Source: Halodesulfurarchaeum sp. (GTDB lineage: Archaea; Halobacteriota; Halobacteria; Halobacteriales; Halobacteriaceae). Taken from it: a DNA stretch of 64,000 nucleotides. Shown piece by piece: positions 4,726-64,000 of the stretch. Made by a program: the position numbers and the translations under genes. The DNA is taken from the NCBI GenBank assembly GCA_034520565.1, contig JAXHNL010000002.1:1184001-1248000 (forward strand), given 5' to 3'. Within the stretch, counting starts at the first letter, position 1. Each line of letters begins with the position of its first letter. The notes beneath the pieces are model-generated. The model did no database searches. It was not told the origin of the DNA and saw nothing but the letters and a program-made list of their open reading frames with translations.

Positions 4726-7573
4726 GCAACGAACCAACTGACGACGGCACGACCGGGCGTCGAGACTTCTTGAAAGGTATCGGGGCGGCTGGCCTCATCG
4801 GAGCAACGGGTGTCGGGGCCGCACAGAAACTCTCGGAGATGGACCGCTTGCAGGTCGCCGATGATCCGATCGGGAACTATCCCTATCGGGAGTGGGAGGA
4901 TCTCTATCGAGAAGACTGGGACTGGGACTCGATCAGTCGCAGCACCCACAGCGTGAACTGTACGGGAAGCTGCTCGTGGGACGTCTACGTGAAGAACGGC
5001 CAGGTGTGGCGCGAAGAACAGGCTGCGGACTACCCGCGATTCGACCTCGACGTGCCCGATCCGAACCCACGGGGGTGTAACAAGGGGGCGTGTTACAAGA
5101 ACTACGTCCACGGTGCCCAGCGGGTGACCCACCCGCTCAAGCGAACCGGCGAACGCGGCGAGGGCAAGTGGCAACAGCTCTCCTGGGACGAGGCCCTCGA
5201 CGACATCGCGGCGGAAGTCATCGACACGGTCGAAGCGGGAAACTACGACGCGATCAGCGGGTTTACCCCGATCCCAGCGATGTCCCCCGCTTCATTCGCC
5301 AGTGGGTCGCGGATGATCAACCTGCTGGGTGGGGTCAGTCACTCCTTCTATGACTGGTACTCGGATCTGCCGCCGGGCCAGCCGATCACCTGGGGCCACC
5401 AGACCGACAACGCCGAGAGTGCGGACTGGTATCACGCCGATTACATCATCGCCTGGGGGTCGAACATCAACGTCACCCGGATTCCCGACGCGAAGTACTT
5501 CCTCGAAGCCGGCTACGACGGCGCCAAGACGGTCGGGGTCTTCACCGACTACTCGCAGACGGCGATTCACACCGACGAGTGGATTTCGCCGGACCCGGGT
5601 ACCGACGCTGCCCTCGCACTCGGCATGGCCCGGACGATCGTCGAGGAGGGCCGGTACGACGAGGCCCACCTGAAAGAGCAATCCGACATGCCGATGCTGG
5701 TTCGGGAGGACACCGGCAAGTTCCTCCGTGCTTCGGCGGTCCCGGGCCTTGACGGGGACGAGAAGGTCCTCGTCATGGAAGATGCCGCCGGCGATCTCCG
5801 GATCGCGCCGGCCTCCCTCGGCGACCGATCCGGGAAGTACGATTCCGATGCCAGCATCGAACTCGACTTCGACCCGTCACTGGATGTCGACCGCTCCGTC
5901 GATCTGGTGGGTGGGGGGTCGGTCCAGGTTCGGTCCGTCTGGAACCGGCTCCGCGAGGAACTCTCCACCTACACGCCCTCGTGGGTGTACGACGAGACGG
6001 GCGTCGGCGAGGAAACAGTCCAGCGGATCGCGCGAGAGTTCGCCGCGGCGGACCGGGGAAAGATCATCCACGGCAAGGGCGTCAACGACTGGTACCACAA
6101 CGATCTGGGCAACCGGTCGATCCAGCTGCTTGTCACCCTGACCGGTCATATCGGTCGGCGGGGGACCGGTGTCGATCACTACGTCGGCCAGGAGAAGATC
6201 TGGACGTTCAACGGCTGGAAGAACCTCTCGTTCCCGACGGGCAGCGTTCGAGGGATGCCGACGACGCTCTGGACGTACTACCACGCGGGAGTGACCGACG
6301 ATCAACCCCGAACTCGCGCGACCGAATCGAGGAGTCCGTTTCGAACGGGACTGGATGCCGCTGTATCCCCAGAAACGCGAAGACGGAACCCGACCGGACC
6401 CGAGCATCTTGTTCGTCGTGGCGGGGCAACTACTTCAACCAGGCCAAAGGTGGCACCTCGGTCAAGGAGACCCTCTGGCCGAAACTCGACCTGATCGTCG
6501 ACGTGAACTACCGAATGGATTCGACCGCGAAGTGGGCCGATTACGTCCTTCCGGCGGCCTCGAACTACGAGAAGTACGACCTCTCGATGACGGACATGCA
6601 CACGTACGTGCATCCCTTTACCAAGGCGATCGAGCCTCTGGGCGAGTCCAAGTCCGACTGGGAGATCTTCCGGCTTCTCGCCGAACGAATCCAGGAGAAG
6701 GCACGGGAACGCGATCTCGATCCGATCCCCGACCGCTCCTTCGATCGGGAGATCGACCTCCAGTCCATCCACGACGACTACGTCAGGGACTGGATCACGG
6801 GCGAGGAGGGGTCGCTCGATTCGGGCCGGGCCGCCTCCGAGTTCATCCTCGAGCACTCGACGGAAACCAACGCTTCCGGGGACGACCCGATCACCTTCGA
6901 GGACACGATCGAGCAGCCACAGCGCTTCCAGGCCGCGGGCGATCACTGGACCTCGAACGTCGAGGACGGGGAAACCTACACGCCGTGGATGGACTTCGTT
7001 CAGGACAAGGAGCCCTGGCCGACCTTCACCGGCCGCCAGCAGTACTACATCGACCACGACTGGTTCCTCGAACTTGGAGAGGAACTGCCGACCCACAAGG
7101 GACCGATCGACGAACAGGATCCGGAGGAGTATCCCCTTCGGTACAATTCTCCCCACGGCCGGTACTCCATCCACTCGACCTGGCGGGACGACAAGTATAT
7201 GCTCCGGCTCAATCGGGGCCAACCGGTCATCTACCTCCATCCCAACGACGCGAGACGTCGGGACATCGAAGACGGCGAGGCGGTGCGGATCTACAACGAC
7301 GAGGGGTCGATTACGGCGATGGCGAAAATCTACCCCAGCAGCGAAGACCGGGACGTGCACGGATGCCCTTCGCGTGGGAGCAGCTACCAGTTCCCCGATC
7401 GGGACAACTTCAACGTCGCTCGTCTCCGATGTACGATGAAACCGACCCAACTGGTCCAGTACCCGGAGGACTCGGGCGAACACCTCTACTTCTTCCCCAA
7501 CTACTGGGGACCCACAGGCGTGAACAGCGACGTCCGCGTCGAGGTCGAGAAGAAGGGAGGTGATGGCACATGA
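4722..7573 (+). CDS. narG: Tat-exported respiratory nitrate reductase alpha subunit (frameshifted in this sequence)
   Basis: RRDFLK Tat motif; HSVNCTGSC..C FS0 motif; TPIPAMS; YDWYSDLP Asp ligand. The reading frame switches near 6300-6420 and 7350-7440 between ORFs 4512, 5981 and 6355. Confidence 0.92.
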
Positions 7574-28710: not shown

Positions 28711-28895
28711 GGTCGAACGGGATTGAAACCCGATGGCGAATCCGAACGCAGTGAGGATTCGCGTGGCTCAAATTTCTTCCGTGTGCGCTTCGCTCGCTCA
28801 CATGAGTTCGCTCGTTGCAGTGCTTGTGGTTCTACCGCTCGCAAAATCGAGACACTCGCTTCGCTCGTGTCTCGCATGCTCGACGGGAATTCACC
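28711..28895. repeat. Distal copy of the tRNA-Glu-associated structured repeat
   Basis: Near-identical to segments of 30084-30406 (e.g. gcaaaatcgagacactcgc..gtgtctcgcatgctcgacggga). Confidence 0.9.
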
Positions 28896-30021: not shown

Positions 30022-30406
30022 TCGTGTGTTCAAATCCTTTCTATGTGCGCTTCGCTCGGGGCAAAACGGTGCCGCTCGCTGCAGTGCTCGCGGTTCCACC
30101 GCTTGCAAAATCAAGACACTCGCTCCGCTCGTGTCTCGCATGCTCGACGGGATTTGAACCCGATGGCAAATCCCCCCTATCGGTCGGATTTGCGTGGTTC
30201 AAATCCCATTCCGGCGCATTTTCTCACTTCGTTCGAAACGTGCTCGCGGTTCCACCGCTCGCAAAATCGAGACACTCGCCTCGCTCGTGTCTCGCATGCT
30301 CGACGGGATTCGAACCGCGATGGCGAATCCTCACTGCGTTCGGATTCGCGTGGCTCAAATCCCTTCCGTGCGCGCTTCGCTCGCTCAAAACGTTCGCTCG
30401 CTGCAG
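30022..30406. repeat. Tandem structured repeat array (about 2.4 units of about 156-167 bp) abutting the tRNA-Glu 3' end
   Basis: Units start at about 30084 and 30240 (gtgctcgcggttccaccgct..) and contain nested inverted repeats. Confidence 0.9.
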
Positions 30407-30481
<75 letters not shown>

Positions 30482-60561: not shown

Positions 60562-61179
60562 ATGACCGAGGACGAGCCACGGGACGGTCGGTCGGAACTG
60601 GGCGACGAGCATGCGGACACGGAACGGGAAACCCGCAGTGGTGAACCCGATGAAACGGCAGGTGACGAGACGGAACCGCCGGCCGAGTCCCGGGGGAGTG
60701 AGGACACCGAGGCGGAGACGCCCGAGGAGGAGACGGGCGCCCGCGATCGAATCGAAGCCGGTGCCGACCGGGCCGTGAACGAACTCGACACTCGTGTCAT
60801 CGACATCCTCTCCTGGTTGCTCGATACCGAGACCCGGGGCCGAATTTACGTCTATCTTCGCCAGGATCCATGGAGTACCAGCGAGGAGGTCGCCGAAGGT
60901 ACCGGTCTTTATCCGAGCACGGTTCGCGAGGCGCTCGCAGAGTTGGCCGATGAAGAGATCGTCGAGCGTCGAAAACGCGAGAGCGAGGGGGCCGGGAACA
61001 ACCCGTTCGAGTACAAGTCCATCGCCCCGAGTGACCTGGTCGGAAGCGTCGTCGGGCGCGTCCAGGAGGAGCTCAACACAGTCTTCACCATGGACCTTCG
61101 GGGGGCAGCAGAGGAAGAGGAGACACCGGAGCCCGTCCAGATCGAAGTCCGTGAGGACACGGAGGAGTCGGCGGAGTAA
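60562..61179 (+). CDS. wHTH (TrmB/ArsR-like) transcription regulator
   Basis: TSEEVAEGTGLYPSTVREAL..GAGNNP. Confidence 0.85.
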   Translation: MTEDEPRDGRSELGDEHADTERETRSGEPDETAGDETEPPAESRGSEDTEAETPEEETGARDRIEAGADRAVNELDTRVIDILSWLLDTETRGRIYVYLRQDPWSTSEEVAEGTGLYPSTVREALAELADEEIVERRKRESEGAGNNPFEYKSIAPSDLVGSVVGRVQEELNTVFTMDLRGAAEEEETPEPVQIEVREDTEESAE

Positions 61180-61237
61180 CGCTGGGTGGGAAGTGCCAAA
61201 CCCAACCTCTAAACGCACGGGAACCATCCCGCGGGAT

Positions 61238-61738
61238 ATGGACGTGGCGCTCGGGGGGACGTTCGACCCCATTCACGACGGACACCGCAAACTTTTTCGT
61301 CGTGGGTTCGAACTCGGCGATCTTACTGTTGGATTGACCAGCGACGAACTGGCCCCCAAGACCCGTCACGAGCCGCGGTACGTCCGACCGTTCGAGGAGC
61401 GCAAGGCCGACCTGGAGGCCGAATTGGCTGCCCTTGCCCCGGAATATGATCGCGAGTTCGAGGTCCGACGCCTCGAGAAGCCGACCGGTATCGCGGTCGA
61501 ACCCCAGTACGAGGCCCTCGTGGTGACGCCGGAAACCAGGGAGGGCGGGCACCGGATCAACGAGATTCGCCAGGACCGGGATCTCGAACCGCTGCAGATC
61601 GTCGTGGTCGAGCGGCTTCTGGCCGAGGACGGGGACATCATCTCAAGCACCCGGATCGTCCGCGGCGAGATCGACGAACACGGTACGCTCACACCGGATC
61701 GGACGGGCCGGGAAAACGACGCCTCTGCGGTCAGGTAA
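61238..61738 (+). CDS. coaD: Phosphopantetheine adenylyltransferase
   Basis: GGTFDPIHDGH, GLTSD, VVTPET, ISSTRI. Confidence 0.92.
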   Translation: MDVALGGTFDPIHDGHRKLFRRGFELGDLTVGLTSDELAPKTRHEPRYVRPFEERKADLEAELAALAPEYDREFEVRRLEKPTGIAVEPQYEALVVTPETREGGHRINEIRQDRDLEPLQIVVVERLLAEDGDIISSTRIVRGEIDEHGTLTPDRTGRENDASAVR

Positions 61739-61771
61739 GTCGGCGGGTTTCGGATTCGGCCGCTTTCAGGA

Positions 61772-62080
61772 CTACCAGGACGGCGTTTCGAATCCGGCTT
61801 TTTCGAGCAGCGGCCGCCAGCGGGACTGGATGGTGAGTCGGGAGACGTCGGCCGCATCGGCGACTGCCGTTTGGGATCGTTGGTCGCCGGCGATCAGTGC
61901 GCCGGCGTAGATGCTCGTCGCGAGGAGCGCGTCTTTCGACCGTTCCTCGACGGGGAGTTGGGAGAGAAACAGTTCCCGGGCGGCCGAACGAGCAGTGGTG
62001 TCCAAGTCGAGTCGTTCCGAGACCCGGTCGAGAGCGGCGAGGGTCGATTGTTCGGCCCGCTCGGTCCCGGCACGATACAT
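61772..62080 (-). CDS. Single-cyclin-domain TFB-related protein
   Basis: A..IYA..LIAG..RSQ..VA.AA.VSRLTIQ.RW. Confidence 0.8.
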   Translation of the reverse strand: MYRAGTERAEQSTLAALDRVSERLDLDTTARSAARELFLSQLPVEERSKDALLATSIYAGALIAGDQRSQTAVADAADVSRLTIQSRWRPLLEKAGFETPSW

Positions 62081-62167
62081 GGGCCAGAAAAGTATCGGAA
62101 TGGGGTTAATGCTTTCCCGGTGGTTTCTCGTGAGCCTTATTGGGGTGCCCGGGGTAGTAGTCGATGC

Positions 62168-62250
62168 GCGCGGGTAGCCAAGTGGTCAACGGCGCAGCGC
62201 TTAGGACGCTGTGGGGTAGCCCTCCGCAGGTTCGAATCCTGTCCCGCGCA
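62168..62250 (+). tRNA. tRNA-Leu (TAG)
   Basis: GCGCGGGTAGCCAAGTGGTCAACGGCGCAGCGCTTAGGACGCTGTGGGGTAGCCCTCCGCAGGTTCGAATCCTGTCCCGCGCA; long variable arm. Confidence 0.96.
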
Positions 62251-62699
62251 GTGCGAGACCCGACCAAAGGGAGGGTCTCGGTAAAGGCGAACGGCGAGGA
62301 ACGAGCCGTGAGCCATGAGCGAGAAAACGAGTGAACGAGCAGGCACGGATTCGAGCCCTGGAAACCGAGCGAAGCGAGGTTTCCTCCGGTTCGAATCCTG
62401 TCCCGCGCACTTTTCAGCGACACTCACCGGCGAGGGACCCCCCGGTGTCCCGAGCCGTGAGATCGCGGTTGTAAATGCGTTCACCGGATTCGAATCAGGG
62501 AAGAGCTTTGCTCTGACCGTGGTTCGAATCCTGTCCCGCGCAGTGCGAGACCCGACCAAAGGGAGGGTCTCGGTAAAGGCGAACGGCGAGGAACGAGCCG
62601 TGAGCCATGAGCGAGAAAACGAGTGAACGAGCAGGCACGGATTCGAGCCCTGGAAATCGACCGAAGGGAGATTTCCTCCGGTTCGAATCCTGTCCCGCG
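62251..62699 (+). repeat. Array of three structured units, each ending in a copy of the tRNA-Leu 3' end
   Basis: GGTTCGAATCCTGTCCCGCG(CA) at 62229, 62388, 62521 and 62680; units 1 and 3 nearly identical (292 bp apart). Confidence 0.95.
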
Positions 62700-62709
62700 G
62701 TATCAGTCG

Positions 62710-63276
62710 TTATTTCCACTTGATCGAACAGCCGCGTGACGGAATCTCCTCGACGTCGACCGGTTCGCCCGCGAGCACCGCGTCAATGGCCTGCCGCATC
62801 TCGAAGCCGGGTTCTCCGCTCGGTTCAGCGTCCGGGCTCTGGGCGTCGTCCAGCCGCCCGTGGTACACGAGCGTGAACTCGCCGTCGGTGCCATCGAAGA
62901 GGAACGGATCGGGCGTGCACGCTGCTCCGTAGGCCTCGGCCACTGCCTGTGACCCGTCCCGAAGGTAGGCGTCGTAGGCAACCGTCCCGTCCGCGACCAG
63001 TTCCCGCATTCGCTCGAACGAATCGTCGGGGTACTCCTCGGCGTCGTTGGGATTGATCCCGACGACTGCGACGTCGTCGTAGTCCGTGGCGATGTCGTTC
63101 AGCGTCTCGAACTTCGACTTCGCGTACGGACAGTGGTTGCAGGTGAACACGACGAGGAGGGCGTCGTACTCACCGAAATCCGACAGCGAGTACGTTTTGT
63201 CGTCGGTCCCCGGGAGTTCGAAGTCCGGTGCCGGCGTGTCGTGTTCGAGTTCGTCGGTCGAAGATTCGACAACCAT
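62710..63276 (-). CDS. Thioredoxin-family / AhpC-TSA-like protein
   Basis: APDFELP, FTCNHCPY, CTPD, YHGRLDD, GCSIKW. Confidence 0.92.
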   Translation of the reverse strand: MVVESSTDELEHDTPAPDFELPGTDDKTYSLSDFGEYDALLVVFTCNHCPYAKSKFETLNDIATDYDDVAVVGINPNDAEEYPDDSFERMRELVADGTVAYDAYLRDGSQAVAEAYGAACTPDPFLFDGTDGEFTLVYHGRLDDAQSPDAEPSGEPGFEMRQAIDAVLAGEPVDVEEIPSRGCSIKWK

Positions 63277-63380
63277 GCCCGACCGTAGCAGCCCCCGGCT
63301 CAAACGGATTTGGGTGGCGGACCGACCGTCCGGGACCGTCGTCTCGGGCATTTATGCGGCGGCGGCCTGTACGTTCGTCT

Positions 63381-63659
63381 ATGCCCGACCGCAAGCGAGC
63401 TCACGTCTACGTCTCCGGACGGGTGCAAGGGGTCTACTTTCGGGCGAACACGCGCGATCAGGCCCGGAAACGTGACGTCGATGGCTGGGTCAAAAATCTC
63501 GCGGACGGCCGCGTCGAAGCGGTCTTCGAAGGCGAGCCGGCCGCCGTCGAGTCGATGATCGAGTGGTGTCACGAGGGGAGCCCGGCTGCCGAAGTTAGTG
63601 ACGTCACCGTTTCCACGGAGGAACCGATTGCGCTGGAGGGGTTCGAGATCAGGCGCTAA
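63381..63659 (+). CDS. acyP: Acylphosphatase
   Basis: VSGRVQGVYFR, GWVKN..DGRVE. Confidence 0.95.
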   Translation: MPDRKRAHVYVSGRVQGVYFRANTRDQARKRDVDGWVKNLADGRVEAVFEGEPAAVESMIEWCHEGSPAAEVSDVTVSTEEPIALEGFEIRR

Positions 63660-63672
63660 CCCGTCTCGCGTT

Positions 63673-64000
63673 TCACTCCTCGTCGGCCACGCTCGGGTGC
63701 TGGGTCGGTTCATCCGGGTGCGGTTCGGCAAAGAACGATTGCATGACCTCGAGCGATTCGGCCTCTCGATCCCGGCGTTCCGACTCGGAGATTTCCTCAC
63801 AGCCCGGAGGGACGTCTCGACTGCGGCCGGTGAAGTAGCCCTCTGGAGCGATCCAGTCGTGGTAGAAATTCACGTCCGAATCCTCGACGACGGCGACGCC
63901 CACTGATGCTCCGTGTCCGGCGACGATGACCGTCTGATACGGTTGCATCGCCAGCCGTCCAGCGGCGTAGAGCCCGTCGACGCCGGTCCGGCCCCGGTCG
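63673..64000 (-). CDS. C-terminal part of an FAD-dependent (TrxB-like) oxidoreductase, partial
   Basis: The frame extends to the window edge: GRTGVDGLYAAG..QTVIVAGHG..YHDW. Confidence 0.75.
   Translation of the reverse strand, partial: DRGRTGVDGLYAAGRLAMQPYQTVIVAGHGASVGVAVVEDSDVNFYHDWIAPEGYFTGRSRDVPPGCEEISESERRDREAESLEVMQSFFAEPHPDEPTQHPSVADEE

Follow-up and report, generated by a model that had tools for sequence, protein, structure and literature searches.

Gene-less folded cassettes in arrays behind haloarchaeal tRNA genes and their possible mobilisation at the tRNA T-loop

Behind the tRNA-Leu(TAG) gene in a 64,000-nucleotide stretch of a Halodesulfurarchaeum sp. genome (GenBank assembly GCA_034520565.1, contig JAXHNL010000002.1, positions 1,184,001 to 1,248,000 of the forward strand; hereafter the window), three small non-coding units are bracketed by copies of the tRNA 3' end. 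These units are members of a class-wide family of gene-less cassettes of approximately 100–170 nt that stand in arrays behind haloarchaeal tRNA genes. Arrays of variable composition, bodies shared between different tRNA genes, a foreign tRNA tail inside an array and a clean block difference between two related genomes speak for the T-loop as the place where cassettes are acquired, lost and copied, while a strand-specific fold suggests that their working form is single-stranded. The interpretation that we favour, and to which we assign a probability of roughly 50%, sees the units as non-coding cassettes for which the tRNA T-loop is the site of recombination and a folded single strand the form that recombines, with catalysis supplied in trans.

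The tRNA-Leu(TAG) gene is located at 62168–62250 on the plus strand (predicted with ARAGORN; 57.7 bits with the Rfam tRNA model). Its final 22 nt, GGTTCGAATCCTGTCCCGCGCA (62229–62250), begin at the two G preceding the T-loop and run to the discriminator. On the same strand this word is repeated as a second copy at 62388–62409 (22/22 nt), a third at 62521–62542 (22/22 nt) and a decayed fourth that ends in CGCGGT at 62680–62699 (20/22 nt). The spacers between these copies are the bodies of unit A (62251–62387, 137 nt), in which small GA-rich hairpins are followed by an inverted T-loop word (from 62347) and an inner hairpin, of unit B (62410–62520, 111 nt), in which a T run (CTTTTC) comes first, then a long hairpin, and an inverted T-loop word, starting at 62486, is followed by a short inner hairpin, and of unit A' (62543–62679, 137 nt), which is 97% identical to A; all three lie on the plus strand. 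The array includes a 179-nt repeat (D1) whose copies are 98% alike. The inverted word GGATTCGA occurs at 62347, 62486 and 62639 and base-pairs with TCGAATCC of the next tRNA-end copy, and the differences between A and A' cluster in the inner hairpin, where they are compensatory (GGAAACC/GGTTTCC in A, GGAAATC/GATTTCC in A'). A preliminary description of the window had already reported the recurring tRNA tail with its positions, the two kinds of spacer with their lengths, the pairing word and the non-coding nature of the units, and all of these were reproduced exactly. It had also noted that the window holds no integrase or transposase, in agreement with the lack of any match to PF00589 (integrase) or PF01797 (Y1 transposase) within the window, tRNA-Leu(TAG) and its surroundings included.

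Each inverted word folds back on the T-loop copy that follows it. In the module of unit A (62347–62398, plus strand; minimum free energy −30.7 kcal/mol), the inverted T-loop word and the T-loop copy form an 11-bp outer stem, followed by a 2 × 3 internal loop, a 7-bp inner stem and, above it, an apex of tandem GA, 2 bp and a GAA triloop. The module of unit B (62486–62531, plus strand; −28.2 kcal/mol) is a near-palindrome, and that of unit A' (62639–62690, plus strand) reaches −29.6 kcal/mol. When the whole 471-nt array was folded against shuffled sequences, z-scores of −7.76 (plus strand) and −5.44 (minus strand) were obtained, with none of 100 shuffles equalling the array. In general, a unit runs from the discriminator through a body of small hairpins (40–100 nt) and the module to the 3' T-stem and acceptor strand, so that its end is a copy of the T-loop, 3' T-stem and 3' acceptor strand of the resident tRNA. 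In the module, the 11-nt inverted T-loop word, placed about 30–60 nt upstream of the end copy, is joined through the 2 × 3 internal loop to an inner stem of about 7 bp with the apex on top, and the T-loop word of 11 nt closes the module. Many body hairpins share the apex GA-NN-GNA-NN-GA (tandem G-A, 2 bp, GNA triloop), in the window array for instance at 62360–62384 and 62652–62676, and with stems of at least 5 bp they number 38 in the window genome versus 0 in the reversed genome. Hairpins with this apex were also seen outside tRNA arrays and on both strands, resembling a repeat family of the repetitive extragenic palindromic (REP) type.

A covariance model built from six modules retrieved 60 sense-strand modules at E < 7e−6 in the DNA searched. 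It scored the module of unit A at 83.0 bits in sense versus 29.6 bits in antisense orientation, that of A' at 80.1 bits, and that of B at 27.7 bits on the plus and 28.8 bits on the minus strand. Covariation was counted on the 50 distinct rows of the 60-module alignment, while a MAFFT alignment of 13 modules, which was out of structural register, was left out of the counts. Of the 975 cells in the alignment 95.8% were paired, and both sides had changed in 10 of 20 pairs overall and in 7 of 7 pairs of the inner helix. Compensatory cells amounted to 107 versus 29.4 in shuffles, none of 500 shuffles reached the observed values, and the signal collapsed in a control with slid pairing partners. Independently of the covariance model, the sense strand folded better in 46 of 54 modules (mean −28.5 vs. 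−23.2 kcal/mol, Wilcoxon 2e−9). The same 54 modules contain 56 G-U pairs in sense and 29 in antisense orientation, and two outer-stem pairs are G-U in 19/50 and 13/50 sequences, with almost no unpaired cells. It follows from the bias of both folding and G-U pairs towards the sense strand that the fold is selected on one strand, either as RNA or as single-stranded DNA. An Rfam scan of positions 61000–64000, with E-values up to 10, returned only tRNA matches and nothing on the units. A bulge-helix-bulge intron was rejected by eye, as the fold lacks the motif of a 3-nt bulge, a 4-bp helix and a 3-nt bulge.

The spread of the units was assessed first of all in the window genome itself (2 contigs, 1.86 Mb, 81% complete). 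Among its 39 tRNA genes with a canonical T-loop, 20 are followed within 40–300 nt by their own 3' 12-mer (≤ 2 mismatches), whereas another tRNA's 12-mer was found at the same distance in 34 of 1210 pairs, which excludes chance as an explanation. Every unit in this genome ends in the tail of the tRNA that precedes it. A signature pattern covering the inverted T-loop word, hairpin spacer and T-loop word (GGATTYGA-N22-52-GGTTCRAATC) was present in 34 of the 41 relatives' genomes and in 385 of the 401 genomes from Halobacteria that are at least 90% complete, with 0 matches to the reversed pattern in every Halobacteria genome listed. In a phylum-wide sample it gave 46 positive genomes out of 50 from the same order versus 6 of 250 others, and the three matches listed for the latter resemble a class-II tRNA's own anticodon-to-T-loop stretch; outside the Halobacteria the signature is almost absent. 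All placed matches of the window genome belong to tRNA-linked arrays, including two seemingly solitary ones that turned out to lie 3' of the intron-bearing tRNA-Arg(TCT). A census with a loose regular expression gave 241 candidates, which were mostly noise, and was discarded as too permissive. This genome-wide and class-wide distribution had been overlooked in the preliminary description, as had the one-strand fold, which leaves an RNA function possible.

A search for related units across the genome and a comparison of the tRNA-Leu(TAG) locus between strains had been proposed from the outset. The former located them at many other tRNA loci, while the orthologous locus in nine genomes (the window's included) carries 3, 3, 1, 1, 3, 1, 1, 1, and 1 units of differing types, and the array is thereby neither invariant among relatives nor confined to a single place. 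Between two complete congeneric genomes (G001 and G010) the unit counts listed differ at 9 of 12 shared tRNA loci, as obtained with a finder that allowed up to 3 mismatches in 12 nt and included other unit classes. Bodies were compared after the last 22 nt of each unit had been removed. In the window genome, the second unit of tRNA-Val(GAC) and the first of tRNA-Val(CAC) have bodies that are 98% identical. In G001, identity reaches 93% between the first unit of tRNA-Arg(CCG) and the third of tRNA-Lys(TTT), 90–91% between the first unit of tRNA-Arg(TCT) and each of these two, and 90% between the second unit of tRNA-Leu(TAG) and the first of tRNA-Leu(GAG), i.e., bodies of about 90% identity are found behind tRNAs with unrelated acceptor stems. 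The closest relative of unit A is a tRNA-Leu(TAG) unit of another genus (79%), and unit B has its closest relatives in other genomes, behind tRNA-Val genes (81% and 77%); since one is kept at the same tRNA and the others at a different one, both vertical persistence and lateral spread occur.

The position of the joint is indicated by the tRNA-Leu(TAA) loci of G001 and G010, which differ by a single 89-nt gap in flanks whose 184 aligned columns contain just 3 mismatches and 1 indel. The block is bounded by a duplicated 11-nt T-loop word, GGTTCGAATCC, and the break falls inside this word. Although it lies within a Leu(TAA) array, it starts with a 3' T-stem and acceptor strand of the tRNA-Leu(TAG) type followed by a body of the kind usual in tRNA-Leu(TAG) units and by an inverted word fitting the foreign tail. 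From this layout we infer that the tail travels with the body that follows it and that the joint lies in the T-loop, as integration by T-loop crossover would predict. Of the earlier proposal that the units are mobile mini-elements, the gain or loss of whole blocks is supported by this clean indel bounded by the T-loop word, and the proposal as a whole is supported in part.

If cassettes do recombine in this manner, the mobile piece would comprise the rest of the T-loop, the 3' T-stem, the acceptor strand, the body, the inverted T-loop word and the hairpin, and would recombine with the T-loop of the tRNA gene or of an earlier end copy. An incoming unit would provide the upstream side with a new tail and displace the old tail downstream, as is the case for integrative elements at tRNA genes. 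The active substrate may be a folded single strand, by analogy with the attC sites of integrons and with the attachment site of the CTX phage, which work in that form, and the catalyst would be a recombinase encoded elsewhere in the genome. A unit with the wrong tail would wreck a working tRNA, and mismatched units should therefore survive only in dead downstream copies; both foreign tails seen lie in such copies, as expected from this survival argument. Linkage of the inverted word was analyzed in 61 units by means of a G/A loop difference, by scoring Watson-Crick pairing with the upstream versus the downstream copy. The script identified 3 units whose inverted word pairs with the upstream copy only, two further cases (the first unit of locus L031 and the insert of L030) were recognized by eye, and one additional downstream hit of the script was spurious. 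Support for a putative linkage to the upstream copy is real but thin.

Several observations weigh against mobile, trans-mobilised cassettes. In the linkage test, 56 of the 61 units were uninformative, and the inverted word of the second tRNA-Glu(TTC) unit of the window (30141–30296) pairs with the downstream instead of the upstream copy. The covariation alignment was fitted to the model and is biased towards structure, and compensatory changes and sense-strand G-U pairs are equally expected of a functional RNA. The inverted pieces of A, B, and A' fit tRNA-Leu(TAG) no better than other tRNA tails (own-tail local-alignment scores of 17, 19, and 17 vs. null means of 18.0, 19.8, and 18.0), pairing as they do with the conserved T-loop word only, while among the inverted pieces of other units some rank their own tail first among about 25–42 tRNA tails. 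The units are also mosaic, one A-type body being combined with different hairpin modules in G001 and G010, so that much of the shuffling could be the outcome of ordinary homologous recombination at the conserved 11-mers. Instead of an insertion, a deletion between 11-nt repeats could underlie the 89-nt difference, no enzyme was identified for the movement of units, and neither an excised circle nor an empty site was found in the assembled contigs that constitute the sole read data.

As for the enzymes, tyrosine recombinases and Y1/HUH transposases had both been named as candidates in the preliminary description, and the former were found in all six genomes checked, with four PF00589 loci in the window genome, each outside the window. 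The Y1 transposase (PF01797) was without a match in the 81% complete window genome (G000) and in G063 (99% complete, 35 pattern matches), and was present in G001, G010, G019, and G025. Reverse transcriptase (PF00078) was without a match in all five genomes searched (G000, G001, G010, G025, and G063). The profile searches do not support either a Y1 transposase or a reverse transcriptase as the engine, and a retroelement with a tRNA-like 3' end was rejected on the same PF00078 result. A casposon-type insertion was ruled out by anatomy, as terminal inverted repeats are lacking (Cas1 was not searched for).

Larger integrative elements are inserted in the same arrays. At the intron-bearing tRNA-Arg(TCT) of the window genome (tRNA at C2:516873–516977, element locus at C2:520001–534000), an 8.9-kb element encodes a 349-aa tyrosine recombinase (positions 4794–5843 of the locus; Phage_integrase and N-terminal SAM-like domain in Pfam), with a 13-nt core repeat 48 bp past the integrase stop codon. 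This element is followed by a folded unit, by a 4.5-kb element that holds just the tail of a second integrase gene, and by a further folded unit. A 20-kb element was found at tRNA-Pro(CGG), its 13-nt repeats lying roughly 20 kb downstream of that tRNA. Another element, of 8 kb, is located at tRNA-Arg(TCG) of the window genome. These large elements share an SNJ2-like layout and their repeat does not include the T-loop. According to the published account (PMC5861418), SNJ2-type integrases use a 14-bp core at the tRNA 3' end, the spacing being 48 bp in one subgroup. Other short units make up a second class, which ends in GGGACT or GGGAGT, with the 3' T-stem and acceptor coming next, and looks like the joined ends of large integrative elements. 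The window units form a different class, with a repeat that includes the T-loop and with the conserved module.

Searches among viruses and plasmids gave no match to the units in phage records and one weak match in plasmid records (25% of the query, 78% identity). Of at least 119 loci returned by a pattern scan of IMG/VR, 80 were examined; they contained no viral attP and were mostly tRNA-Ser genes or chance matches, with one haloarchaeal-looking case (L055) in which a tRNA-Glu and a module lie at the contig end. The scan also brought up near-perfect palindromes of two inverted tRNA 3' halves (GGATTTGAACCGTGGACCTCTGG ... CCAGAGGTCCACGGTTCAAATCC) in viral contigs of non-haloarchaeal appearance with about 60% G+C (L058, L061, L079, L084, L093, L102, L115, and L123).

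Evidence from sequencing runs consisted of assembled contigs, not raw reads. Contigs of the probable source sample cover unit B, unit A' and both outer junctions without differences, but they break at every copy and leave the private hairpin of unit A (62270–62380) uncovered, so that the order A-B-A' rests on the assembly and is not independently confirmed by them. One 163-nt metagenome contig from the 62388–62542 region, whose first and last 30 nt are identical, reads B-end, copy, B, copy; it implies a B-to-B junction absent from the window, be it a tandem B-B, a 133-nt circle, or a strain difference. The RNA run yielded two short contigs, one of them on a relative's locus. In one metatranscriptome contig tRNA-Leu(TAG) runs 102 nt into a relative's A-type unit, a weak hint at read-through that may be DNA carry-over.

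Four other explanations were considered. One that we regard as rather unlikely, though deserving of attention, is that the units serve a function within the tRNA transcript (e.g., as fail-safe terminator or processing hairpins made of duplicated tail and T run) and are not mobile, unequal crossing-over having multiplied them and gene conversion having carried them from one tRNA gene to another. Such a role would account for the conserved fold, its compensatory changes and the G-U pairs biased to the sense strand, for the constant orientation of the units with the tRNA, and for the T-rich context seen after 36 of 80 end copies versus 43 of 88 tRNAs. It would also suit the position of unit A directly 3' of the tRNA with no T run before it, the first T run being the start of B. 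The metatranscriptome contig points in the same direction, as do two RNA 3' ends mapped behind a tRNA-Pro gene in Haloferax volcanii, for which hairpins upstream of 503 termination sites are also described (PMC7237163). Yet DNA carry-over may account for the RNA contig, and the units are without a match in Rfam. Unit number and type vary between congeners and 19 of the 39 tRNAs of the window genome are without an end copy, which fits an essential role poorly. Furthermore, foreign tRNA tails are found inside arrays, and bodies of about 90% identity occur behind tRNAs with unrelated acceptor stems. These shared bodies also speak against the improbable view that the units are dead attachment scars of large integrase-bearing elements that were later almost wholly deleted, with no mobility or function of their own. 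Large SNJ2-like elements do share the same arrays, e.g., the 8.9-kb element at tRNA-Arg(TCT) and the 20-kb element at tRNA-Pro(CGG), and the second unit class looks like joined ends of such elements. The window repeat, however, measures 22 nt and contains the T-loop versus 13 nt in the large elements, a fold kept class-wide with compensatory changes is not expected of scars, and the record searches gave no phage and only one weak plasmid match.

The remaining two explanations concern the repeat pattern itself. Template switching during replication at short inverted repeats is known to generate inverted triplications, and the order of forward copy, palindromic spacer, inverted copy, palindromic spacer, and forward copy could be read as its by-product. 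We hold this to be very improbable, given that the spacers are conserved families common to different tRNAs and genera and that, in the units read, they do not match the sequence just upstream of the tRNA's own T-loop. An assembly artefact behind the triple repeat is hardly credible: although the source-sample contigs break at each copy, miss the hairpin of A and hold a junction absent from the window, they cover B, A' and both outer junctions without differences, and arrays of the same build are found at many loci of the window genome and in single-contig complete genomes of relatives.

Compared with known systems, the units work like att-flanked elements without an integrase and, in their array logic and putative folded site, like integron cassettes, yet they fail the defining tests of each of these two families. 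Bacterial cis-mobilizable elements (CIMEs) are att-flanked, carry no recombinase, stand in tandem with autonomous elements and are thought to be mobilised in trans or by accretion; they derive from a known parent by deletion, still resemble it and have kept genes. The units are likewise flanked by att-like repeats and devoid of recombination genes, but they have no known parent and show a conserved strand-specific fold, and their bodies were not found at the ends of the large elements read. With integron cassettes and their attC sites, and with the attP(+) site of the CTX phage that is used by XerCD, the units share an array behind a fixed primary site and a terminal imperfect palindrome whose last arm is the primary-site core and which has the inverse core at its start. 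Structure is conserved over sequence and one strand is favoured in both; for the units the 11-bp stem and the favoured sense strand make this an analogy only. Unlike in integrons, there is no IntI-type integrase near the tRNA and no cassette gene (none fits inside units of 111–137 nt), a tRNA T-loop serves as the primary site and the hosts are archaea. That Halobacteria harbour an integron-like system without an integron, in which the T-loop would be the primary site and gene-less cassettes would be caught and released as folded sense single strands, seems doubtful to us, and the same applies to a housekeeping or otherwise unrecognised recombinase as its enzyme. Haloarchaeal MITEs and palindromic elements derived from IS200/IS605 (PATEs) are small, non-coding, hairpin-rich and multi-copy, as are the units. 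The latter differ from MITEs by having internal instead of terminal inverted repeats and a flanking direct repeat of 22 nt taken from one specific target, and from IS200/IS605 derivatives in that Y1 transposase is without a match in G000 (81% complete) and G063. Elements of the SNJ2 type (PMC5861418) resemble the units in lying at tRNA genes with a direct repeat of the tRNA 3' end, and they occupy the same arrays; they are, however, kilobases long, encode an integrase, and have a 3'-distal core of 13–14 nt without the T-loop. By contrast, the window units measure 111–137 nt, are gene-less, and combine a 22-nt repeat that starts at the T-loop with an inverted word and a conserved hairpin. They have the tRNA direct repeat, no integrase inside, and no 14-bp distal core, while the large elements of the window genome agree with SNJ2 in their core (13 nt, 48 bp past the stop codon). 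In the literature covered by our search, which took in article texts but not supplementary tables, partial tRNA duplications are mentioned only as prophage borders and no small folded units are described.

If trans-mobilised cassettes are indeed behind these arrays, almost every haloarchaeal genome would hold dozens of tiny structured cassettes that land on tRNA T-loops, a miniature gene-less tier would be added to the elements known to integrate at tRNA genes, and many stray partial-tRNA annotation hits would be explained. Archaea would then offer a tractable system for the recognition of folded-strand att sites, with Haloferax and Halobacterium as genetically workable hosts. Should the units act as RNA instead, they would represent a large unannotated family of conserved tRNA-trailer structures. 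In either case, the arrays of decoy tRNA tails probably shape the integration sites of viruses and plasmids.

A second array in the window is located on the minus strand behind tRNA-Glu(TTC) (30406–30481), with unit 1 at 30297–30405 and unit 2 at 30141–30296. The covariance model hits it at 30306–30362 (44.8 bits) and 30150–30206 (42.8 bits), and its units share variant end copies, CCCGTCGAGCA, unlike the tRNA's own tail, CCCTGACGGAGCA. About 1.3 kb beyond this array, a decayed module was detected on the plus strand (28720–28775, 21.5 bits), next to two GA-apex hairpins and reversed body sequence of the Glu type (28720–28875 in total); an array that was inverted or lost may have left this region as a relic.

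The genes around the tRNA-Leu(TAG) array are all ordinary. Directly upstream of the tRNA, on the opposite strand, lies a 102-aa open reading frame with a single TFIIB repeat (61772–62080, minus strand), and the downstream neighbours are a peroxiredoxin-type and an acylphosphatase open reading frame. Arrays are often closed by a third repeat, composed of CCACTTTTTCCGAG, a palindrome, and then CTCGCAAAAA..GGGGAAAAAG, which was seen at loci L002, L018, L034, and L041 as well as in the window genome 3' of tRNA-Cys, tRNA-Phe, and tRNA-Pro(TGG). At tRNA-Gly(GCC) of G010, this repeat also ends in a tRNA-tail copy.

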